A DNA stretch of 64,000 nucleotides from Polyangiaceae bacterium (GCA_039809485.1 JBDHVE010000030.1:1752-65751); one strand, 5' to 3'. Counted from the first letter of the stretch, positions 25,237-55,815 are shown. The notes: generated by a model not told the origin, from the letters alone. Numbers and translations: made by a program.

Positions 25237-26910
25237 TCATGCGGCGAGGCAGGCGCGCCCGAGCGCGCGGAGCTCGTCTCCGAGGATGCGGTGGTTCGCT
25301 TCATAGTCGATCGGCACGTCGACGAGGTGGATGCCGGGCGTGCGGAGCGTCCGCGCGAGGAGCGGCCCGAGATCGCTCGCGCGTTCGAGCCGGTGCCCCT
25401 CGGCGCCGAACGCCTCGGCGAGGCGGACGAAGTCGGGGTTGCCGAACGTCATCGCGTGATCGGGGAGCGCCATCTCGACCTGCTTCCAGCGGATCATCCC
25501 GTAGCCGTCGTCGCGTACGACGAGGACGGTCAGGTCGAGGCCGAGCCGCTTCGCCGTCTCGAGCTCCTGCACGCTCATCATCAGCCCGCCGTCGCCGACG
25601 ACGGCGACGACCTTCCGCTCCGGGTGCACGAGCTTCGCGGCGATCGCGGACGGGAGCCCCGCGCCCATCGTCGCGAGCGCGTTGTCGAGGAGCAGCGTCC
25701 GCGGTGCACGCGCGCGGTAGCTCCGCGCGAACCACAGCTTGTACATCCCGTTGTCGAGGCACACGATGCCGTCGTCCGGCATCGCACGCCGGACCTCCGC
25801 GACGAGCCGCGGCGGATGGATCGGGAAGCGCGCGTCGTCCTCCTCGCGCGCGAGGTGCTCGAGGAGCCGCGCGCGGACGGCTTCGAACGGCGCGAGCCGC
25901 GACGGGACGGCCGGGCCCGGCAGCGCCGCCGCGAGACGCGTCACGGCGTCGGCGAGATCGCCGACGAGCTCGAGGTCGGGCGCGTAGACCGCGTCGACTC
26001 CGGGTGAGGTCGCGCCGACGTGGACGAGGACCGGCCCTCCCGGCCGAGGAAGGAACGGCGGCTTCTCGGTCGTGTCGTGACCGACGACGAGGACGACGTC
26101 GGCGCGCGCGATCGCGGCGTGCACCGCGTCGCCGGAGGATGTCGCCGTCGTCCCGAGCCAGAGCGGATCGGCTTCGTCGAGGACGCCCTTGCCCATCTGC
26201 GTCGTCACGAACGGGATCCCCGTCCGCTCGACGAGCGAGCGGAGCGCACGCGGGACGCGCTCACCTCGGCTCGCGCCTTCCCCGACGACGAGGAGCGGCC
26301 GCTCCGCGGCGGCGAGGAGGTCGCGCGCCTTCCAGAGCGCGCGCTCGTCGACGATCGGACGCGACGCACCGTGCGCGCGCGACGAGGCGTGGACGCTCGC
26401 GCGCTCGCGCGCGACGTCGTCGGGGAGCTCGAGCAGCACGGCCCCGGGGCGCTCGTCCTCCGCACGGCGGAACGCGTCGTGGACGCGCGCGGTCACCTCG
26501 GCCGCGGAGGCGAGCGTCCGCGCGAGCTTCGTCACGGGGCGGAGCGCGCCGACGACGTCGACGGTCTGGAACCGCCCCTGCGCGCCGCCGCGGAGCGGCT
26601 TCTGCCCGGTCACGAACAGCGCCGGGAAGCCGCCGAGCTGCGCGTACGCCGCGGCGGTGACGAGGTTCGTCGCGCCGGGCCCGAGCGTCGCGAGCGCGAC
26701 GCCGGCGCGGCCGGTGAGGCGTCCCACCGTCGCGGCCATGATCCCCGCCGCCTGCTCGCTCCGCGTCACCACGAGCGGGAGCCCTGCCGCGCGCATCGCC
26801 TCGACGAGGTCGAGCGTCTCCTCGCCGGGCACACCGAACACTCGCGTCACGCCTTCGGCCCGCAGCGCTGCGACGAGCAGCTCGGCCGAGGTCGCCTCGA
26901 TTCGTTCCAT
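25237..26910 (-). CDS. ThDP-dependent enzyme, acetolactate synthase-like
   Basis: FGVPGEE, TRSEQAAG, TLGPGATN, ITGQ-like VTGQ, ATMGAGLP, VVGDGGLMMS, FGNPDF. Confidence 0.93.
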   Translation of the reverse strand: MERIEATSAELLVAALRAEGVTRVFGVPGEETLDLVEAMRAAGLPLVVTRSEQAAGIMAATVGRLTGRAGVALATLGPGATNLVTAAAYAQLGGFPALFVTGQKPLRGGAQGRFQTVDVVGALRPVTKLARTLASAAEVTARVHDAFRRAEDERPGAVLLELPDDVARERASVHASSRAHGASRPIVDERALWKARDLLAAAERPLLVVGEGASRGERVPRALRSLVERTGIPFVTTQMGKGVLDEADPLWLGTTATSSGDAVHAAIARADVVLVVGHDTTEKPPFLPRPGGPVLVHVGATSPGVDAVYAPDLELVGDLADAVTRLAAALPGPAVPSRLAPFEAVRARLLEHLAREEDDARFPIHPPRLVAEVRRAMPDDGIVCLDNGMYKLWFARSYRARAPRTLLLDNALATMGAGLPSAIAAKLVHPERKVVAVVGDGGLMMSVQELETAKRLGLDLTVLVVRDDGYGMIRWKQVEMALPDHAMTFGNPDFVRLAEAFGAEGHRLERASDLGPLLARTLRTPGIHLVDVPIDYEANHRILGDELRALGRACLAA

Positions 26911-26967
26911 GCCGAGAAGATGGGAGCGGACCGCGTGGCGGCCCAGACGTTTGTTCGGATGCGAGCG

Positions 26968-26982
26968 ATAAGCATTGCTTAT
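26968..26982. promoter_or_regulatory. LysR-type binding site (T-N11-A palindrome)
   Basis: ATAAGC-ATT-GCTTAT, an AT-rich perfect dyad 9 nt upstream of the LysR ATG in the divergent intergenic region. Confidence 0.75.
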
Positions 26983-26991
26983 GATCGACGC

Positions 26992-27888
26992 ATGGAGCTC
27001 CGCCACCTCCGCTACTTCCTCGCCGTCGCGGACACGCTCCACGTCGGGCGCGCCGCGCGAAAGCTCCACATCTCCCAGCCCGCCGTCTCCCAGCAGCTCC
27101 GCGAGCTCGAGGGCGAGCTCGGCGAGACGCTCTTCGAGCGGCACGCGCGTGGCGTGCGCCTCACGCCGGCAGGTGAGGTCTTCCGCGTGCACGCCTCGCG
27201 CGTGCTCGAGGACGTACGCGCGGGCGAACGCGCGCTCGCCGCCTTCGCGAACAAGCAGGTCGGCGAGCTCCGCGTCGCGTACCTGCCGAGCACGACCGCG
27301 AACCTCGTCATCCCCGCCGTCGCGGCGGTGATGAAGCGCTACCCCGGCGCACGCGTGATCGCGTACGAAGGCGTCTCACGCCGCGTGGAGCGCCTCGTCG
27401 CCGAGGGCCGCGCGGACGTCGGCCTCGGCCTGCTCCCGGTGCGGCGGACCGATCTCGTGACGGAGCCGGTGGTCGAAGGTCGCCTCTCCCTCGTGGTGCA
27501 CGCGAAGCACCCGCTCGCAGGCGAGGCCTCCGCTTCGCTCCGCGACGTCGCGAAGGAGCCCTTCGCGCTCCTCTCGCGATCGCTCCGCGCGCGCGCGCTC
27601 GCCGACGCGGCGCTCGCGCGTGCGGGCGTCGAGCCGACGATCGCGCTCGAGGCGGATGCGGTCGCGACCGTCCTCGCCGTCGTGCGCGCGGGGCTCGCCG
27701 TCGCCGTCCTCCCCGAGCCGCGCGTCCGGCGCGGCGACGACCTCGCCGTCGTCCCGCTCCGCCCCCGCGCGCCGCCGCACGTGACGGCGCTCCTCTACCG
27801 CGCGTCCGCCCTGCGCTCGCCGCTGACGGAGGCGTTCGGCGAAGAGGTGCGCGCCGTCGCCGGTCGCCGACTCGACGAGGTCCGCTGA
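26992..27888 (+). CDS. LysR-family transcriptional regulator
   Basis: MELRHLRYFLAVA...AARKLHISQPAVSQQLRELE..LG..LFER...VRLTPAG; divergent from the ThDP enzyme/ALDH pair. Confidence 0.96.
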   Translation: MELRHLRYFLAVADTLHVGRAARKLHISQPAVSQQLRELEGELGETLFERHARGVRLTPAGEVFRVHASRVLEDVRAGERALAAFANKQVGELRVAYLPSTTANLVIPAVAAVMKRYPGARVIAYEGVSRRVERLVAEGRADVGLGLLPVRRTDLVTEPVVEGRLSLVVHAKHPLAGEASASLRDVAKEPFALLSRSLRARALADAALARAGVEPTIALEADAVATVLAVVRAGLAVAVLPEPRVRRGDDLAVVPLRPRAPPHVTALLYRASALRSPLTEAFGEEVRAVAGRRLDEVR

Positions 27889-28072: not shown

Positions 28073-30409
28073 ATGCGACATCTCTCTGGCCTCTTCACCA
28101 AGACGCGCGTCACCGCCCTCGTCCTCGTCCTCGGCGCCGCCTTCGGCCCCTCGGCCGTCGTCGCGTGCGGCAGCTCCGAGAAGGAGGAGACGAGCGTCAA
28201 CGTGTCGGCCATCGTCTTCGAGTCGCGCGCGCACACCGTGATCGCCGAGAACGGCGAGGTGTCCGTCAACGTGGCGGGCGGCAACGGGCAGGTCCTCGAC
28301 TACACGCGCTACGTCCCCGGCGCGAAGCTCCGCGTGCTCTCGCCGCCGCGTCCGGACGGCGCGGTCCGGAACCTGATCGAGGCGTTCCCGCAGGCCGACC
28401 TGAACGGCTTCGACGTCTCGTTCGACGCGAAGCAGGTCGTCTTCTCGATGAAACGCGACCCGAACGATCGCTACCACATCTACACGGTGCAGCTCGACAC
28501 GGGCGAGATCCACCAGAAGACGGGCGGCGATCAGAACGACATCACGCCGATCTACCTCCCCGGCGGCCGGATCGCCTTCGCGACGGACCAGATGTACACG
28601 CCGATGGGCACGCGCGCCGACGAGTACAACCACTCGCGTCAGGTCACGCAGCTCGCGACGATCAGCATCGACGGCGGTGACGCCGACCGCCGCCTCGCGT
28701 CGCAGAACCTCTCGCACTCCGTCTCGCTCTTCTCGCGCCACAACGGGAAGATCGGCTACTCGCGCTGGGAGCACCTCGGCGGCGTCAACGACGTGAAGCT
28801 GTTCGAGGCCGCGCCGGACGGCGCGCAGATGACGGCGATCGCGGGCCAGCACGGCAAGCCGTCGAACTCGCTCGTCAACGTGCGCGAGCTCGAGCCGAAC
28901 GTCTTCATCGGGATCGCGACGAACCGCTCGCGCACGATCCACGCGGGCGCGCTCGTGAAGATCGACGCGCGCAACCATGCCGACCCGATCTGCATGGACG
29001 CCAAGATCCTCGACAAGGCGGGGCACGCCTGCCTCGACGAGGAGAACGTCCAGTACGAGCTCCTCACGCCCGAGGTCCCGACCGGCGCGGGCCCCTCGCC
29101 CGTCGGCCGCTACCGGACGCCGAGCGCTCTCCCGGACGGCCGCCTCCTCGTCTCGTGGGCCGACGGCGCGGTGAACGACCTCGCCGAGCAGTCGCTCACG
29201 CCGCCGAACTTCGGCATCTACATGTTCGACCCGGCGACGAAGAAGAACCAGCTGATCTTCGACGACCGTGACATGTGGGATCTGAACGCGATGGCCGTCG
29301 CGCCGCGTCCCGAGCCGCCGGTGATCGGCGCGCTCACGGCGCGGGCGCCCGATCCCGGTACGCCGGTCCGGATCGGCTCCGTCGACATCACGCGCACGAG
29401 CCTCACCGATCGCGTGAGCGGCGGCATGTTCGGCGACGGCGTTCCGCTGAACGAGGCGCTCAAGGCGGCGGTGAAGGTCCGCGTCATCGAGGGCTTCTCG
29501 AGCGAGGCCGCGAAGGGCGTCACGATGTTCGGCCTCACGATGGACGAAGGCGCCGCGATCCTCGGCGAGGCCGACGTGAACCCGGACGGGAGCTGGCTCG
29601 CGGAGATCCCGCCGTACCTGCCGGTCCACCTCCAGCCGATCGACAAGTTCGGGATGTCGATCCGCAACCAGCGCCTCTGGATCCAGGGCATGCCCGGCGA
29701 GGACCGCCGCTGCATCGGCTGCCACGAGAGCCGCACGCAGTCGGTCGCGGCGCGCGCCGGAAACCCCACCGTCGCCGAGCAGCGTCAGGCGCAGCAGTTC
29801 CTCGCGCCGGTCTCCGACCGCGCGGAGATCTCGTGGAGCCTCGACCGCACGAAGTACCCCGACGCGAAGCCGAAGGCGGTCGTCCAGGACATCCTCAACG
29901 CGAAGTGCGCGTCGTGTCACTCGGGCGGCGCGAACGACCCCTTCGCCGGCAAGACGTACAGCGTCACGCAGACGACGCCGGGGACCGGCACGACGCAGCA
30001 GTACACGATCCCGTACCTCGACCTCAGCGAGAAGCCGATCACCGTCGTCTACGACCGCATGGTCGCGACCTATCCGTCCTCCTACGTCTCGCTCTTCTTC
30101 CCCGCCACGCTCGAGATGGGGATGGGGATGGGCGCGGCACCGGTCGGTGAGGTCCCGCCGAAGTGGGCGATCGTGAACGACGCGCGCAACTCGGCGCTGA
30201 TCAAGAAGCTGAACGTGAAGGCGCCGGACGGCTCGTTCGCCTACGGCAACCCGGCGATGCACCCCGAGGACAAGGGCGTCACCCTCACCGACGAAGAGCG
30301 CCTGCAGCTCGTCCGCGCGATCGACATCGGAGGCCAGTTCTACACGCGACAGAACACCGGCTTCGTCCCCTTCAACGACACCCGCTACGCCGGGCAGGCG
30401 TACCCCTGA
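28073..30409 (+). CDS. Hydrazine synthase alpha-like lipoprotein (PD40/TolB propeller + HZS-alpha middle domain + C-terminal c-heme domain)
   Basis: VVAC lipobox; DVSFDAKQVVFSMK, DITPIYLPGGRIAF propeller repeats; VNPDGSWLAEIP...LQPIDKFG...PGEDRRCIGCHE; CASCH. Confidence 0.82.
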   Translation: MRHLSGLFTKTRVTALVLVLGAAFGPSAVVACGSSEKEETSVNVSAIVFESRAHTVIAENGEVSVNVAGGNGQVLDYTRYVPGAKLRVLSPPRPDGAVRNLIEAFPQADLNGFDVSFDAKQVVFSMKRDPNDRYHIYTVQLDTGEIHQKTGGDQNDITPIYLPGGRIAFATDQMYTPMGTRADEYNHSRQVTQLATISIDGGDADRRLASQNLSHSVSLFSRHNGKIGYSRWEHLGGVNDVKLFEAAPDGAQMTAIAGQHGKPSNSLVNVRELEPNVFIGIATNRSRTIHAGALVKIDARNHADPICMDAKILDKAGHACLDEENVQYELLTPEVPTGAGPSPVGRYRTPSALPDGRLLVSWADGAVNDLAEQSLTPPNFGIYMFDPATKKNQLIFDDRDMWDLNAMAVAPRPEPPVIGALTARAPDPGTPVRIGSVDITRTSLTDRVSGGMFGDGVPLNEALKAAVKVRVIEGFSSEAAKGVTMFGLTMDEGAAILGEADVNPDGSWLAEIPPYLPVHLQPIDKFGMSIRNQRLWIQGMPGEDRRCIGCHESRTQSVAARAGNPTVAEQRQAQQFLAPVSDRAEISWSLDRTKYPDAKPKAVVQDILNAKCASCHSGGANDPFAGKTYSVTQTTPGTGTTQQYTIPYLDLSEKPITVVYDRMVATYPSSYVSLFFPATLEMGMGMGAAPVGEVPPKWAIVNDARNSALIKKLNVKAPDGSFAYGNPAMHPEDKGVTLTDEERLQLVRAIDIGGQFYTRQNTGFVPFNDTRYAGQAYP

Positions 30410-30425
30410 GGACGAGGAGAACCCC

Positions 30426-31358
30426 ATGATCTCCAAGACGACCAAGCTCGGCCTCACGGTCTCCACCTTCGCGTCCGTCGCGTTCGCGTGCCTGTCGCTC
30501 TTCACGCCGGCAGCCCACGGCGGCCCGGCGGAGGCGACCGGCGGCGCCGCGCGGATGTACCCGGGCATCGCCCCCGACCAGATCGAGAAGCTCTCCTCCG
30601 GCGACCGCATCAAGACGGTCACCGCGCAGCGCGGATCGATGACGGCGATCTGGGAAGCGCTCGAGGAGGGCGAGAAGGTCGAGTGCCTCGACTGCATCCC
30701 ATCCGTCGAGCCGCTCATGTACGACGCCGATCCGCGGACGCGCGAGATCGCCGCGTGGTGGCTCCGCCGCCGGATCTTCGGCGTGTTCGGCCCGGGCGAG
30801 GTCTACGAGCGCACGATCAAGCGGCTCTCGTCGGACGGGAACCCGAAGGTCCGCGCCTACGCGGCCGAAGCCCTCGGCGAGTTCCTGCTCGCGCCGGGCG
30901 TCGAAGCCGTCGCGCTCGCGGTCGAGAAGGATCCGGAGCCCACCGTCCGCGCGGCGGCGGCGAGCGCGCTCGGTCGTCTCAACGACGACGGTCGCGACGC
31001 GATCACGAAGGCGCTCGGGGACAGCGACCCGCGCGTGAAGCTCGCCGGCCTCTCGTCGGCGACGCGGGTGAACTCGTTCTCCGACGTCTCGGCGGTCGCG
31101 AAGCTCCTCGGCGACGGGGACGCGAAGGTGCGCCGGCGCGCGGCCGAAGCGCTCGGCTCGATGAACGCGAAGGACTCGACGGCAGGCCTGATGGCCCTCG
31201 CGAAGAACGACCCGGACGCGAACGTCCGCAACTCGGCCGTCCACACCCTCGGCATGCTCCGCGACCCCAACGCGCGGCCCGTGCTCGAGGACGTCGCGAA
31301 GACCGACGCCGACTCGCTCGTCCGCGATCAGGCCGCGATCGCGCTCCGCCGACTCTGA
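30426..31358 (+). CDS. Exported HEAT-repeat protein with CxxC
   Basis: Signal peptide; ECLDC; repeated D.dp.VR..AA.ALG units. Confidence 0.88.
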   Translation: MISKTTKLGLTVSTFASVAFACLSLFTPAAHGGPAEATGGAARMYPGIAPDQIEKLSSGDRIKTVTAQRGSMTAIWEALEEGEKVECLDCIPSVEPLMYDADPRTREIAAWWLRRRIFGVFGPGEVYERTIKRLSSDGNPKVRAYAAEALGEFLLAPGVEAVALAVEKDPEPTVRAAAASALGRLNDDGRDAITKALGDSDPRVKLAGLSSATRVNSFSDVSAVAKLLGDGDAKVRRRAAEALGSMNAKDSTAGLMALAKNDPDANVRNSAVHTLGMLRDPNARPVLEDVAKTDADSLVRDQAAIALRRL

Positions 31359-31362
31359 AAGA

Positions 31363-31447
31363 AGGCTCCAGGCTACAGGCTTCAGCAGCGAGAGATTTCG
31401 CCGACCGCAACCGCTCTCTCGTTCCTGAAGCCTGTAGCCTGGAGCCT
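31363..31447. repeat. Intergenic inverted-repeat element built from heptamer repeats
   Basis: Perfect 23-bp IR: AGGCTCCAGGCTACAGGCTTCAG (31363-31385) and its complement (31425-31447); inner CGAGAGA/TCTCTCG pair. Confidence 0.92.
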
Positions 31448-31464
31448 GTGGCGTTTCCGCTACA

Positions 31465-34400
31465 ATGCCGACCGTGCGCTTTCCTTCCGCCATCACCGCG
31501 GCCGTTGCAGCCGGCGCCGTCTTCGTCGCCCTCTCGCCGCTCTCGTGCTCCGAGAAGGAGCCGCAGTCGTCGACGTACTTCGATCGTACGATCAGCCCGA
31601 TCCTGACGACGGGGTGCTCGCGGACGAACACGGGCGCGAGCTGTCACGTCGCGGACGCGAAGGGCAACGCGCTCGGCAACCTCGACACCGCGAGCTACGC
31701 CGGGATCGCGAAGCGGCGCGATCTCCTCGTCGACTACGGCCCGTACGGGCAGCCGGCCCTCCTCCTCAAGAACGTCGATCCGCTCCAGGTCGCGGTCACG
31801 ACGTACGACGGCAAGAAGGTCACCGTCACGACCGACATCAAGCACGCGGGCGGCTCCGTCCTCGACGCGACCGGCACCGCGTACACGACGCTCCGGCGCT
31901 GGCTCCAGAACGGCGCGACCGAGAACAACACCGGCGCCACCGCGAAGCAGCTCGAGAAGCAGGCCTGCAGCACGTTCCTCCCGTCGCGCGAGTTCGATCT
32001 CACGAAGGACCCGCCGCGCGCGGACTTCGCGCTGTTCCGCGACAAGGTGAATCCGCTCCTCACGAGGCCTTCGGAGTCCGGCACCGACAAGAGCTGCGCG
32101 GCCTCGAACTGCCACGGCACGGTGGCGAACTCGCTCTACCTCTCGTGCGGCGACACCCCCGAGCAGCTCCGCTTCAACTACTACGCGTCCCAGGAGTACC
32201 TCGCCGCGACGCCGGAGCAGAGCGAGCTGCTCCGCCGTCCGCTCTCGCCGTCGGCGGGAGGCGCGTACCACGAGGGCGGCGTCGTCTTCGACAGTCCGAG
32301 CGACGACGTCTACCAGGCGCTGAACGAGTGGGCGAAGGCGCACGGCCCGGCGATCGTCCCGGAGAGGGACGCCGGCTTCGACTTCTTCTCGCAGAAGGTG
32401 CAGCCGATCCTCGTCAAGAAGGGCTGCATGATGATGCAGTGCCACTCGGCGACGCTGTTCCACGACTACCGGCTCCGCGGCGGATCGGGCGGGAGCTTCT
32501 CGCTCAGCGCGACGCGGAAGAACTACGAGCTGTCGCTCACGCAGCTGGCGGTCGAGAGCGACGATCCGAGCGCGAGCCGGATCGTGAAGAAGAACCTCTA
32601 CCGCCCGGAGGTGTGCGGCGTCGCCGGGTGTGACAAGCCCTCGGGCATCACGCACCGCGGCGGTCCGCTCTTCGAGGACTTCGGCAACCAGACCGCGAGC
32701 CCGAAGGCGTGCGCGGAGGGGAAGTACGACTACGACAACGGCGATCTCGACAAGATCCCCGCGTACTGCGTCGTCGCCGAATGGCTCCGGCGCGAGCGCG
32801 AGACCCACAAGCTCGCGCCGCTCAGCGCCGTCGTGTACGTGAAGCGCCCGCTCGGCAGCTACAAGCGCGTGCAGGACTTCGACGTCTATTCGCCGGGCGC
32901 CGATCTGCGTCGCGCGGCGGTGACCGTCGCTGCCGACGGCCGGATCACGGCGGGGAACGACACCTCGCTCGCGCAGGGCTGCGGCCTCAGCCCTGCGACC
33001 GCGGACATCCAGCGCCCGCAGGTGTCGTGGGACGGCGCGAAGATCGCGTTCGCCGCGCGCTCGTCGGCGAGCGAGCCGCTCGCCGTCTACGAGATGAACG
33101 CGGACGGCTCCGCGTGCGCGAAGCACCCGGTGATCAACGCGACGCCGCCGACGCAGAACGGCCTCCTCGTCCACAACTTCGACCCGACCTATGCGCCGCC
33201 GGAGAACGGCGTGACGCGCATCGTCTGGGCCTCGACGCGCGGAAACCTTCCGATCGTCCAGACCGACTACCAGGGGCCGCAGCGGCAGCCCGCCGATCCT
33301 TCGAAGCCGAACCCGAACCTCTACGTGCTCGAGGCGGGCGACAAGATCCGGCAGCTCACGTTCCTCCTCAACATGGAGCGACGTCCGAGCTTCATGAACG
33401 ACGGCCGGTTGATCTTTCCGGCCGAGAAGCGCGCGCCGCAGTTCCACCAGGTCGCGCTCCGCCGCATCAACATCGACTCGGGTGACTATCACCCGCTCTA
33501 CGCGCAGCGCAGCTCGATCGGCTACTCGGAGGCCTCCGAGGTCGTCGAGCTCTCGGACAAGAACTTCGCGACCATCTTCCGCGAGCCGAGCACGCCCCAC
33601 GGCGGCGGCGTCCTCGCGATCTTCAATCGGTCGCTCGGCCTCGACTTCAGGAGCACGAATCCGGCGGACTACCTCGTCGACCCCGGCGTCCTCGATCCGG
33701 CGGCGCTCCAGTCCCCCGACCCGCAGTTCTTCCTCCGATCCCTGAAGTTCCCCGATCCGGCTGCGGACGCGCGGCCCGGCAAGCCGACGACGGGCGTCTA
33801 CACGTCGCCGTCGATGCTCCCGAACGATCGCCTGCTCGTCAGCTTCGGCCCCGCGGCGGACGCGGCGGCCTTCGACGGCAACTACGACGTCTGGGTCATG
33901 AGCTCGGTGACCGGCGCGAAGGAGAAGCTCCTCGGCGACGCGGGCTCCGCGGAGGTCGAGGCCGTCGGCGTGTACGGCAAGCTCGTCCGGCCGATCTTCA
34001 AGTCGTCGCTCGACGAGCCGAACGGCCACACCCGCATCACGGACGGCGTCGCGGAAGCGCAGCTCCACGTCGTCGACTTCGGGATCCTCGCGACGCTCCT
34101 CTTCCAGAACACGCCGACGGGTCGGGTCATCGATCCCGACCTCACGTCGGTGGAGCTCTACGAGGACATGCCTCCCCCGCCCGAGATGGACTCGTTCGAG
34201 AAGGGCGGCGCCAACATCGCGACCGACGCGTACGGCCGGGTCTACGTCCGGCGGCGCCTCCTCGGCACGGTGCCGTTCGCGAGCGACGGCTCGGCGAAGT
34301 TCACGGTTCCGGGTGGCGTGCCGCTCGTCATCCACGCGCCCGACACACCGCTCTCGCGCGAGAAGAAGCTTCCGCGCTGGCAGCGTGAGCAGTACGTGTT

Positions 34401-34623
34401 CGCGCCGGGCGAGTACGCGCACCAGTCGTTCAAACGCGAGCTGTTCGGTTCGCTCTGCGGGGCGTGCCACGGGTCGGTCACCGGCAAGCCGGTCGACGCC
34501 GCGCTGATCCCGGACTTCGTCACCCAGGCGTCGTCGACGCTCTCACGTTCGCAGCCGCCGCTCGGCCTCGCGATCCCGCCGGCCCAGCGCACGCAGGTCC
34601 TCGAAGGCGCGCCGAAGGAGTAG
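31465..34623 (+). CDS. Multiheme lipoprotein: three N-terminal c-heme modules + PD40/TolB propeller + HZS-alpha-like middle domain
   Basis: PLSC lipobox; CX8CH, CX4CH, CX4CH each followed by H.GG; PQVSWDGAKIAFAAR, HNFDPTYAP; VPFASDGSAKFTVP...FAPGE...LCGACH. Confidence 0.8.
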   Translation: MPTVRFPSAITAAVAAGAVFVALSPLSCSEKEPQSSTYFDRTISPILTTGCSRTNTGASCHVADAKGNALGNLDTASYAGIAKRRDLLVDYGPYGQPALLLKNVDPLQVAVTTYDGKKVTVTTDIKHAGGSVLDATGTAYTTLRRWLQNGATENNTGATAKQLEKQACSTFLPSREFDLTKDPPRADFALFRDKVNPLLTRPSESGTDKSCAASNCHGTVANSLYLSCGDTPEQLRFNYYASQEYLAATPEQSELLRRPLSPSAGGAYHEGGVVFDSPSDDVYQALNEWAKAHGPAIVPERDAGFDFFSQKVQPILVKKGCMMMQCHSATLFHDYRLRGGSGGSFSLSATRKNYELSLTQLAVESDDPSASRIVKKNLYRPEVCGVAGCDKPSGITHRGGPLFEDFGNQTASPKACAEGKYDYDNGDLDKIPAYCVVAEWLRRERETHKLAPLSAVVYVKRPLGSYKRVQDFDVYSPGADLRRAAVTVAADGRITAGNDTSLAQGCGLSPATADIQRPQVSWDGAKIAFAARSSASEPLAVYEMNADGSACAKHPVINATPPTQNGLLVHNFDPTYAPPENGVTRIVWASTRGNLPIVQTDYQGPQRQPADPSKPNPNLYVLEAGDKIRQLTFLLNMERRPSFMNDGRLIFPAEKRAPQFHQVALRRINIDSGDYHPLYAQRSSIGYSEASEVVELSDKNFATIFREPSTPHGGGVLAIFNRSLGLDFRSTNPADYLVDPGVLDPAALQSPDPQFFLRSLKFPDPAADARPGKPTTGVYTSPSMLPNDRLLVSFGPAADAAAFDGNYDVWVMSSVTGAKEKLLGDAGSAEVEAVGVYGKLVRPIFKSSLDEPNGHTRITDGVAEAQLHVVDFGILATLLFQNTPTGRVIDPDLTSVELYEDMPPPPEMDSFEKGGANIATDAYGRVYVRRRLLGTVPFASDGSAKFTVPGGVPLVIHAPDTPLSREKKLPRWQREQYVFAPGEYAHQSFKRELFGSLCGACHGSVTGKPVDAALIPDFVTQASSTLSRSQPPLGLAIPPAQRTQVLEGAPKE

Positions 34624-34626
34624 CGG

Positions 34627-35205
34627 GTGGACGCGCGCGAGCTCGCGAGGCGGCGCCCGGTGTGGAAGGCGCTCTCGGACCTGTTCCTCGACACGGAGGC
34701 ACGGCCGTGGATCCCGTCGATGGCGCTCGTCGTCCTCGACGCCGGGTACTCCGACGACGAGATGCGGCGGATCTGGCGAAACGAGATCGTCCCCGAGTTC
34801 TCGCCGAACCTCCTCTCGATCGCGGGCGAGTGGGCGGACCTGCCGCTCGACGAAGAAAGCCTCGTCGCGCGCGCGGAAGGGGGAGGCAGCATGCTCGGCG
34901 CCGTCGCTTCGAAGAACGCGCCCTCGCTCGACGAGCAGCTCGAGGCGGTCCTCGCCGTGCGGCGTGTCCTCGGCGAGACGAGGCCGGAGGCCCGCGGAGA
35001 GCTCGCCCACGAGCTCGGCAAGGTCCTCGACGTCTGGGTCGACGGCGCGATCGGAGGCCGCGAGCCCGCGTCCGAGGCGATCCGGCCGCTCGTGGGTGCT
35101 GCGTTCCGTCGGCTGCAGCCGACGTTCGTCGACCTCTTGATCGGCGAAAGACGCGCGACGGCGGCCGAGCGCGTCGCATTGGTCGAACGCTTCCTCGGGT
35201 GCTAA
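34627..35205 (+). CDS. Hypothetical protein
   Basis: RRPVWKALSDLFLDT N-terminal motif resembles a conserved uncharacterised family; starts 3 nt after the upstream stop. Confidence 0.65.
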   Translation: MDARELARRRPVWKALSDLFLDTEARPWIPSMALVVLDAGYSDDEMRRIWRNEIVPEFSPNLLSIAGEWADLPLDEESLVARAEGGGSMLGAVASKNAPSLDEQLEAVLAVRRVLGETRPEARGELAHELGKVLDVWVDGAIGGREPASEAIRPLVGAAFRRLQPTFVDLLIGERRATAAERVALVERFLGC

Positions 35206-35214
35206 GCCTCCGGC

Positions 35215-35667
35215 GTGAGGTGGCCGGCTGTCATCGCGCTCTTCGCCCTCGCGGGCTGCCGAGCGGGAGGGTGCGCTGCCGCGTCGCTCGGCGACGTGGT
35301 CGGCGCGACCGGCGACGCGTACTGCGACCGTCGCTACGTGCCGGACGATCGCGAGCCCGGCTCGTTCTGCCAGGAGATCGTCGACACGCTCGCCGCGAGC
35401 CAGTTCCAGGACGACTGCCGCGAGAAGCACGCGGCGCGCTCCGAGGAGGGGCGCTGCCCGCGTGAGCGCGTCCTCGGCGGCTGCAAGCTGCTGAAGGAGA
35501 ACGACGACGGCAGCGAGGTCATCGACTGGTACTACGACGTGGTCGGCTTCGAGCGGGACGACGGGGGCAAGCCGTTCGTCGATCCCGCGCGGACGAAGGA
35601 CGACGTGAAGAGCCTCTGCTCGGACAAGACGCGCTACGACGAGGGCGCCACGTTCGTGGAGCCCTGA
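35215..35667 (+). CDS. Small Cys-rich lipoprotein
   Basis: LAGC lipobox; six further Cys in the mature C-terminal domain. Confidence 0.7.
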   Translation: MRWPAVIALFALAGCRAGGCAAASLGDVVGATGDAYCDRRYVPDDREPGSFCQEIVDTLAASQFQDDCREKHAARSEEGRCPRERVLGGCKLLKENDDGSEVIDWYYDVVGFERDDGGKPFVDPARTKDDVKSLCSDKTRYDEGATFVEP

Positions 35668-40259: not shown

Positions 40260-40346
40260 GGAGAGCTGACCGAGTGGCCGAAGGTGCCTGATTCGAAATC
40301 AGGTGTACCTGCAAGGGTACCAAGGGTTCGAATCCCTTGCTCTCCG
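40260..40346 (+). tRNA. tRNA-Ser(CGA)
   Basis: Acceptor GGAGAGC/GCTCTCC, anticodon arm CCTGA-TTCGAAA-TCAGG, long variable arm GTACC/GGTAC, T arm AAGGG-TTCGAAT-CCCTT, G discriminator; CCA not encoded. Confidence 0.95.
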
Positions 40347-55047: not shown

Positions 55048-55454
55048 GGACGGGGGCTTTCCCGCCCGCGGGAACGCGAGTCGACGTCGCCGTTCGTCGT
55101 CGGAACGACCTCGGCAGGGCTCCGCGCCAGGAACGACCGCATCTTCGGCTCTTCCTTCGGCCTGTGCATGTCGGGTTTGGCGGAGCTCGGTGCCATGTCA
55201 GAGACGACAGCCACCTCGAGAGGTGGGGAAAGCGCGTCACGCCCACGGGCGCCGGCCAGAGACGAAGAGACGAGGCAACCTCGCCGCGGCCGCTTTTGAA
55301 ACGAGACGACGCCCAGCGCAGAACGCTGGGCAGGAACCTGCGGGGGCGAACCCCCTACGCCCTTTGGTACCGGAACTCGCGCGGCCGCGCCAGAGGAAAG
55401 GCTGGCTGGGCTGCGGCGCGAGGAGACGAGAAGAGCGGAGCCTTAAATAGGGAA

Positions 55455-55532
55455 GGCCCTGTCACACCCTTCCGCGCTACCGTTGCTCCCTCTCGGGCCT
55501 GGCGGGGTTCACGTTTCCGGGTCGACAGGGCC
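55455..55532 (-). ncRNA. ffs: Signal recognition particle RNA (4.5S)
   Basis: Minus strand reads GGCCCUGUC...GAACCCCGCCAGGCCCGAGAGGGAGCAACGGUAGC...GACAGGGCC: SRP helix-8 core (CAGG...GNRA loop...AGCA) inside a closing stem. Ends approximate. Confidence 0.85.
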
Positions 55533-55815
55533 ATGTGAATCCGCGCTCCCGTTCCCTCGCAGGACCGAGCTCGCGTCTTTCGAATGGCTGCTGGAGGTCC
55601 TGTACGTCGTCTCACCGAGGGCGTCCAATCTTTTTGCGATGCGTTCGAGACCGTCGCGATTGTCATCATGATCCCGAGCACTTGAGCTGCCGGGTCTGCC
55701 GAGCGGCCGGGTCCGGGCCGAAGCTCGCGTTGACCTGGCCACCCGAGCTGCCAGAGTGCCGCCCGCTTCGAGGCCGGCGACGGGGAAATCGACGGCTTCG
55801 GGGCTCGGAGGACAC

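Follow-up and report, generated by a model that had tools for sequence, protein, structure and literature searches.

Hydrazine synthase (HZS) was, to our knowledge, long held to have no relatives outside anammox bacteria. A 64,000-nucleotide stretch from a Polyangiaceae bacterium (GCA_039809485.1, JBDHVE010000030.1:1752-65751; the whole stretch is called the window here) raises the question of what a protein resembling the alpha subunit of this enzyme is doing in a soil myxobacterium. Three genes at positions 28,073 to 34,623 of the window, designated A, B and C (Table 1), had been described from the sequence alone as an operon for a candidate undescribed envelope redox system with about six haems (the original prediction). 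We found that the trio is a variant of an HZS-alpha family already known outside anammox bacteria, a variant that has no beta-gamma protein and instead has a HEAT-repeat protein and expanded CXnCH modules.

A, B and C are co-oriented on the + strand and have a coding-type GC content at third codon positions (GC3, 0.90-0.95), and the start codon of B lies 16 nt downstream of the A stop. The signal peptides of A and C end in a conserved cysteine, which in C is C28 (at least 90% conserved among 47 C orthologues), so both proteins are predicted to be lipoproteins; B carries a Sec-type signal peptide. The open reading frames (ORFs), the signal peptides and the HEAT_2 match thus reproduced the arrangement that had been proposed, a HEAT protein between two lipoproteins with all three exported. 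The cassette has three canonical CxxCH motifs, CIGCH (A 547-551), CASCH (A 612-616) and CGACH (C 998-1002), each found where it had been predicted; all are invariant among orthologues and all are in exported proteins. By the criterion for c-type cytochromes, CxxCH in an exported protein, A and C are predicted to attach haem. Promoter, terminator and Rfam scans of the cassette region gave no relevant match.

The relationship of A to HZS-alpha was examined by sequence and by structure. The HZS_alpha model PF18582 (gathering cut-off 26.6 bits) matched A with 59.9 bits. Its beta-propeller spans about residues 45-410; predicted haem 1 belongs to a middle domain and predicted haem 2 to a C-terminal cytochrome domain. 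A single-sequence search of the PDB matched A to chain A of 5C2V, which is HzsA (kuste2861) of 'Ca. Kuenenia stuttgartiensis', in three collinear pieces corresponding to the propeller, the middle domain and the C-terminal domain; a profile of 64 A orthologues matched the same chain in six collinear segments (E 2.2e-13). The AlphaFold2 model of A (predicted local distance difference test score, pLDDT, 81.7; predicted template modelling score, pTM, 0.82) had 5C2V as its top Foldseek match in the PDB (E 3.1e-25, TM 0.59, 851 aligned columns), and the runner-up, TolB (E 6.6e-10), covered the propeller part only. A shares the three-domain layout of HzsA at nearly equal length, although the sequence identity is only 15-18%. 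Profile and predicted structure therefore agreed with the layout put forward in the original prediction and indicated that A is a genuine full-length protein of the HZS-alpha fold.

Exactly two CxxCH motifs were present in each A orthologue (63/63). The CH-E-x-R of haem 1 is invariant, and 'CGGCHE.R' was kept in orthologues at 32-37% identity. The residue at position +4 after the haem-1 His is T, S, A or V among orthologues. Two further residues of the middle domain, M485 and M490, are invariant. The CASCH segment of haem 2 aligned with 'ILDAKCAMCH' of HZS-alpha; in a single orthologue (L087, G210:C1) this site reads CATSGCH (CX4CH), and it is CxxCH in all others. In the profile alignment H730 fell on chain residue 745 of 5C2V_A, which is His772 after a 27-residue offset, and a His near this column was retained in most of the distant A orthologues. 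Because the invariant H730 aligned with the distal alphaII ligand His772 of HzsA, A appears to keep a bis-His haem of the alphaII type (H616 and H730). The Zn site of HZS is formed by His587 and Cys303; the propeller region around Cys303 gave no reliable alignment with A at this level of identity.

The PF18582 check that had been suggested was passed by A and not by C (21.9 bits). However, profile-profile alignment with hhalign paired A 42-561 with C 451-1012 at 99.6% probability, and the AlphaFold2 model of C (pLDDT 76.9) had 5C2V_A as its top Foldseek match (E 6.7e-22, 640 columns, propeller and middle domain only), so that 5C2V was the best structural match of both models. These two results indicated that C is homologous to A despite its sub-threshold score. 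As judged by alignment and model, C is a paralogue of the propeller and middle haem unit of A and has no alphaII-type C-terminal domain. The position +4 after the CGACH His is S in most C orthologues.

Residues 1-450 of C consist of three cytochrome-like modules, each with the leader F-x3-V-x-P-I-L, a Cys...Cys-His and a later H-x-G-G. Conservation of all CXnCH and HxGG motifs was 100% in the 47 orthologues, and the motifs persisted in orthologues down to 32% identity; distant orthologues have X6 or X8 between the two Cys of module 1. An hhalign comparison showed module 2 to be homologous to module 3 (96% probability). No Pfam model matched this N-terminal region with the threshold relaxed to E <= 10, and a profile search found no sequence relative in the PDB. 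The leader also stands before the canonical CxxCH in the C-terminal domains of A and of HZS-alpha. Compared with F-x3-V-x-P-I-L...CxxCH cytochrome c domains of this HZS-alpha C-terminal type, which Pfam Cytochrome_CBB3 and Haem_bd match weakly, the modules of C share the leader and the Cys...Cys-His but have the Cys spacing widened to 4, 6 or 8 and a distal H-x-G-G in addition. The module is not confined to the Polyangia cassette, because HZS_alpha-domain proteins of 1,170-1,360 aa from other Myxococcota classes (L090-L094) carry N-terminal modules with the same leader and HxGG. In HZS-alpha-like proteins of those classes, n took the values 2, 3, 4 and 10 inside one protein (CX3CH, CX4CH and CX10CH among the motifs). 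The shared leader, the variable n elsewhere and the CX4CH at the haem-2 site of one A orthologue suggest that the CX4-8CH motifs of C are putative haem sites with widened Cys spacing. If they bind haem, C would have four haems and the pair of A and C would have six. Of the roughly six haems originally proposed, three are thus accounted for by canonical CxxCH motifs, and the remainder stand only if the three CXnCH motifs of C bind haem.

The genome contains a second C paralogue, 52% identical (contig C24:49387-52692, - strand), with the same series CX8CH, CX4CH, CX4CH and CxxCH; it stands alone beside an EAL-domain gene. Two copies of C with a single A were found in six genomes, including this one.

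More than 1,100 homologues of A are present in the protein database, all unnamed or 'hypothetical'; the named sources are Labilithrix, Polyangiaceae or Myxococcales metagenome-assembled genomes (MAGs). A profile of A retrieved 4,312 clusters (50% identity) at E <= 1e-3 and 306 at E <= 1e-30. Architectures in the HZS_alpha superfamily vary, and one of them joins an alpha unit to a lactonase-type propeller and a cytochrome c. Relatives turned up in 228 stretches when species-representative genomes were scanned, and 80 loci were taken for locus comparison. The order A-B-C was present in 56 of the 58 loci with room for it, and the two exceptions (L063 and L074) retained A and B only. Six loci from other families of the same class (32-37% identity) were also compared: five had A-B-C, and the sixth had A and B with C 44 kb away. 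In an evenly drawn sample of 301 Myxococcota genomes, PF18582 was found in 53 and A in 26, the latter all within Polyangia, the class of the window. A full-length C orthologue was present in 26/26 A-positive and 0/275 A-negative genomes (Fisher p 4e-38, uncorrected for phylogeny). In three genomes (G059, G125 and G255) A and C were on separate contigs, and in a fourth (G115) 44 kb separated them; both were nonetheless retained. The expectation that the trio would prove conserved together was therefore borne out: A, B and C are co-inherited as a unit. For the putative heteromeric complex of the original prediction, the evidence of coupling is genomic only, namely gene order and the co-occurrence of A and C. 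When all neighbouring ORFs of the 80 loci were clustered, no further recurrent partner emerged, only housekeeping genes at variable distances. The LysR, thiamine pyrophosphate (TPP)-enzyme, aldehyde dehydrogenase, DUF7079 and methyltransferase genes of the window were considered as partners and rejected, as they are not conserved with the cassette.

B adjoined A in 72 of the 80 loci, and in loci without B the sequence ends close to A. It stayed beside A even where C was unlinked or locally absent; B tracks A, not C. Six orthologues from other families also have both its CxxC and the invariant segment that follows. Bilin lyases of the E/F type, which link tetrapyrroles to Cys through thioethers, are HEAT proteins, and B gave weak HEAT_PBS, NblB and CpcE matches. 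With the bilin-lyase and NblB models of NCBIfam it scored 53, 34.5 and 20 bits against cut-offs of 220-330. B has the same kind of HEAT-like repeats as the E/F-type phycobiliprotein lyases and NblB, but it is predicted to be periplasmic, belongs to a non-photosynthetic bacterium, has an invariant CxxC and scores far below those cut-offs; as far as sequence can tell, the similarity is at the level of the repeat only. A HEAT/HZS-alpha fusion that could serve as a 'Rosetta stone' was sought, and the 15 long PF18582 proteins scanned carried no HEAT domain. No B-like gene was found beside the long HZS_alpha-domain genes of other Myxococcota classes. A published supplement does list 'HEAT repeat domain-containing' hits of ~1,240 aa in Pirellulales and Verrucomicrobia (PMC12758564).

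Is the cassette a hydrazine synthase? In HZS, the haem alphaI ligand is Tyr591, four residues past the CxxCH His (PMC12758564; PMC12607021). The corresponding residue is Thr in both A (T555) and C (T1006), as had been noted from the sequence. The HzsA equivalog model of NCBIfam (NF052339, cut-off 800) gave 55.1 bits for A and 18.2 bits for C. The bis-His alphaII site with its distal His772 has a counterpart in A through H730, and C is without that domain. No beta/gamma-like gene was found in the window region or in the 80 related loci, in agreement with the lack of nearby candidates noted earlier. A CCP_MauG domain search of the genome returned four CCP_MauG-type proteins. A 663-aa lipoprotein on another contig (C51:7027-9015, - strand) combines a YVTN propeller with a di-haem CCP domain; a lipoprotein at C163:7090-8982 (- strand) likewise joins a YVTN-type propeller to a di-haem CCP/MauG domain. 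Both share their architecture with fused HZS beta-gamma and gave weak matches to it. The C51 protein matched 5C2V_C (gamma) at E 8e-7 and 5C2V_B (beta) at E 1e-3, and scored 27, 32 and 34 bits with NF052340 (beta), NF052341 (gamma) and NF052342 (fusion), the cut-offs of which are 560-1250 bits. Phylum-wide, 72 of the 301 genomes had its family, yet among the A-positive ones the figure was only 13 of 26, and the protein was rejected as an obligate beta/gamma partner, as it does not co-occur with A. Since the Tyr ligand is replaced, the NF052339 scores are far below the cut-off and no linked or co-inherited beta/gamma protein was found, the conclusion from sequence that the cassette is not a hydrazine synthase is well founded. 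The chemistry would accordingly be other than hydrazine synthesis, as had been proposed; N-oxide or peroxide handling and surface electron transfer, the examples then offered, would be candidates for it. The original prediction had named, as a finding that would overturn it, hzsB/hzsC homologues elsewhere together with a restored Tyr ligand. A weakly beta/gamma-like protein does exist in the genome; it shows no co-occurrence with the cassette, and no Tyr is restored.

Homologues of HZS-alpha outside anammox bacteria were reported by Hagglund et al. in 2025, with Tyr591 missing in all and no member of tested function (PMC12758564). The four clades (I-IV) on which that study focuses come from Planctomycetota, Desulfobacterota, Acidobacteriota and Verrucomicrobiota; what defines them is that a fused beta-gamma homologue is encoded at the same locus, often together with ABC binding proteins and an FG-GAP protein. 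Polyangia proteins are in its supplementary hit table only, and Myxococcota are absent from its main text (PMC12758564). To call the system 'undescribed' was thus an overstatement, while it held true that no function has been published for orthologues. The Polyangia cassette resembles clades I-IV in encoding HZS_alpha-domain haem/propeller proteins without Tyr591 in a non-anammox bacterium. It differs from them in having no co-located beta-gamma homologue; the alpha-like protein is accompanied instead by a tetra-motif paralogue and a HEAT protein. The alphaII distal His is reported to be absent from clade I homologues (PMC12758564), whereas A appears to keep it. Compared with HzsA, the operon holds the paralogue C and the HEAT protein where beta/gamma would be, and the host, confirmed as a myxobacterium, is of the aerobic soil type.

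Taken together, A, B and C probably form one cell-envelope module, a periplasmic multihaem oxidoreductase that shares its origin with HZS-alpha and is not a hydrazine synthase. By sequence and model, both large proteins have an HZS-alpha core in which the beta-propeller packs against the middle domain with its one predicted c-type haem. This haem would be attached by an ordinary CxxCH and have a His axial ligand in place of the Tyr of HZS; because the ligand is His and not Tyr, it should be reducible, unlike haem alphaI of HZS. The working site in each large protein would be this His-ligated c-haem at the interface of the propeller and the middle domain. In A, electrons would arrive through the bis-His C-terminal haem (H616, H730), the counterpart of alphaII, and in C the three tandem expanded-motif modules at the N-terminus would take the electron-feeding role; the cassette would have up to six haems in total. 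B, predicted to be soluble in the periplasm and an obligate neighbour of A, would most likely be an adaptor or a redox-active subunit docking on A. The substrate would probably be a small diffusible molecule reaching the haem through the propeller side.

The same features could belong to an electron conduit with no enzyme in it, in which all six haems are six-coordinate, the propellers serve for docking, and A and C are mere relays that exchange electrons, within the periplasm or at the outer membrane, with another redox partner or with an acceptor that is insoluble or lies outside the cell. Such a conduit would suit the lipoprotein nature of A and C and the presence of a distal His candidate for haem 2 of A (H730) and for each module of C (the His of HxGG), which makes four of six haems; M485 and M490 of A could be sixth ligands, and no neighbour gene is substrate-related. 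It is nevertheless unlikely: a protein of 80-115 kDa would have only 2-4 haems, the propellers are very strongly conserved over large surfaces and in loops (mean column identity in the A and C orthologue alignments 48-52% over 47-64 species), which resembles an active site more than a wire, and the sole characterised relative, HZS-alpha, employs this haem in catalysis. A second view concerns B, which might be a maturation factor, either a chaperone like the CpcE/F lyases or a CxxC thiol reductant, that loads haem on unusual sites, leaving A and C as the only functional parts. Its weak HEAT_PBS, NblB and CpcE matches, its invariant CxxC and the non-canonical CX4-8CH of C would all be in keeping with this, and CX15CH-type motifs, as in Wolinella MccA, need dedicated lyases. 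However, CX4CH is processed by general maturation systems in other bacteria, the lyase-family scores are far below the cut-offs (53 vs 300 bits) and typical of any HEAT_PBS repeat, and at loci from which C is missing, or where it is unlinked, B still adjoins A, a protein with canonical CxxCH only. We regard a maturation role as quite unlikely; a lyase dedicated to the atypical motifs of C, in particular, was downgraded since B follows A rather than C.

The cassette could also have a non-redox role, with TolB-like propellers that bind envelope components or peptides and haems that serve as redox or gas sensors or as structural cofactors. After HZS-alpha, the next structural matches of the A and C models are indeed TolB and prolyl-oligopeptidase-type propellers; these matches span the propeller only (TMq 0.2-0.3), it is hard to see why a binding protein would have six invariant haem motifs and modules of the electron-transfer type, and the neighbourhood encodes neither a signalling domain nor a partner, so that we consider this role very unlikely. 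Scarcely credible is a cryptic hydrazine synthase in which A, or A with C, would use the unlinked C51 protein as beta-gamma and make hydrazine or carry out a close N-N coupling. The weak matches of that lipoprotein to the gamma, beta and fusion models and the alphaII bis-His site kept in A would speak for it; the scores far under the cut-offs, the presence of the C51 family in only half of the A-positive genomes, the missing Tyr591 in A and C, and a host lineage of soil and freshwater Polyangia rather than anammox planctomycetes all speak against it.

The multihaem oxidoreductase module is the reading that we retain, and several points weigh against it. The N-terminal 450 residues of C lack a Pfam or PDB sequence relative, the AlphaFold2 model of C is poor around the module motifs, and the predicted attachment of haem to CX4-8CH draws on the motifs themselves. 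The co-occurrence counts of A and C ignore shared ancestry, and the genes flanking the cassette in the 80 loci gave no hint of a substrate. A bolder form of the oxidoreductase reading, which we find quite doubtful, is that the cassette is a self-sufficient HZS-alpha-type enzyme without beta-gamma. Two paralogous catalytic units would be wired by CX4-8CH/HxGG modules, which would constitute a novel class of c-type cytochrome module in which the Cys spacing varies, the CxxC HEAT subunit would hold or redox-tune them, and the enzyme would perform N-N, N-O or related small-molecule chemistry, for example hydroxylamine or NO turnover, in aerobic soil bacteria. If true, it would show the role of the alpha subunit before its recruitment into hydrazine synthase. 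The cassette represents a compact HZS_alpha form of three genes, with no beta-gamma, the alphaII site apparently kept and a predicted ordinary His-ligated 'catalytic' haem. If a cultured carrier exists (the named A matches are MAGs only), it would offer a tractable system for the role of the fold and for the changes toward a hydrazine-forming enzyme. Should the CXnCH modules bind haem, the known range of c-type haem attachment motifs would widen.

Table 1. Genes and predicted functional motifs of the cassette, in window coordinates.
Feature	Position	Strand	Remarks
Gene A, 778-aa predicted lipoprotein of HZS-alpha architecture	28073..30409	+	
A lipobox cysteine, C32	28166..28168	+	invariant in 64 A orthologues
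A predicted haem-1 motif CIGCH (C547, C550, H551)	29711..29725	+	followed by invariant E552 and R554
A predicted haem-2 motif CASCH (C612, C615, H616), alphaII-type C-terminal domain	29906..29920	+	invariant
A H730, candidate distal ligand of haem 2	30260..30262	+	invariant in 64 orthologues
Gene B, 310-aa predicted Sec-exported HEAT-repeat protein	30426..31358	+	HEAT_2 E 3.3e-38
B CxxC, C87-L-D-C90	30684..30695	+	invariant in 33 orthologues; followed by invariant REIAAWWLRRR.FGVFG
Gene C, 1052-aa predicted lipoprotein	31465..34623	+	N-terminal modules, propeller, middle haem domain
C module 1, C51-X8-C60-H61 (putative haem site)	31615..31647	+	partner H127-x-G-G at 31843-31854
C module 2, C211-X4-C216-H217 (putative haem site)	32095..32115	+	partner H269-E-G-G at 32269-32280
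C module 3, C321-X4-C326-H327 (putative haem site)	32425..32445	+	partner H397-R-G-G at 32653-32664
C predicted canonical haem motif CGACH (C998, C1001, H1002)	34456..34470	+	invariant in 47 orthologues; aligns with A haem 1

Two genes follow C closely in the window. The DUF7079 gene (34627-35205, + strand; E 1e-18) begins 3 nt past the C stop and is probably co-transcribed with C because of this short gap; it follows C in only one other locus. Starting 9 nt after it, a gene at 35215-35667 (+ strand) encodes a 150-aa Cys-rich lipoprotein with the lipobox LAGC, about 10 Cys and no Pfam family. This gene was found just downstream of C in seven of the closest related loci (54-79% identity) and was not conserved there in more distant loci; it may have been added to the cassette in this lineage only. 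Upstream of A, a 622-aa ORF at 26020-27888 (+ strand) is a shadow of the TPP-enzyme gene on the opposite strand (25237-27192, - strand). Only its last ~300 residues, a LysR regulator from about 26975, look real, and this regulator is not conserved beside the cassette elsewhere. The only two Rfam matches in the window are a tRNA gene (40260-40346, + strand) and a small signal recognition particle (SRP) RNA gene (55447-55537, - strand).

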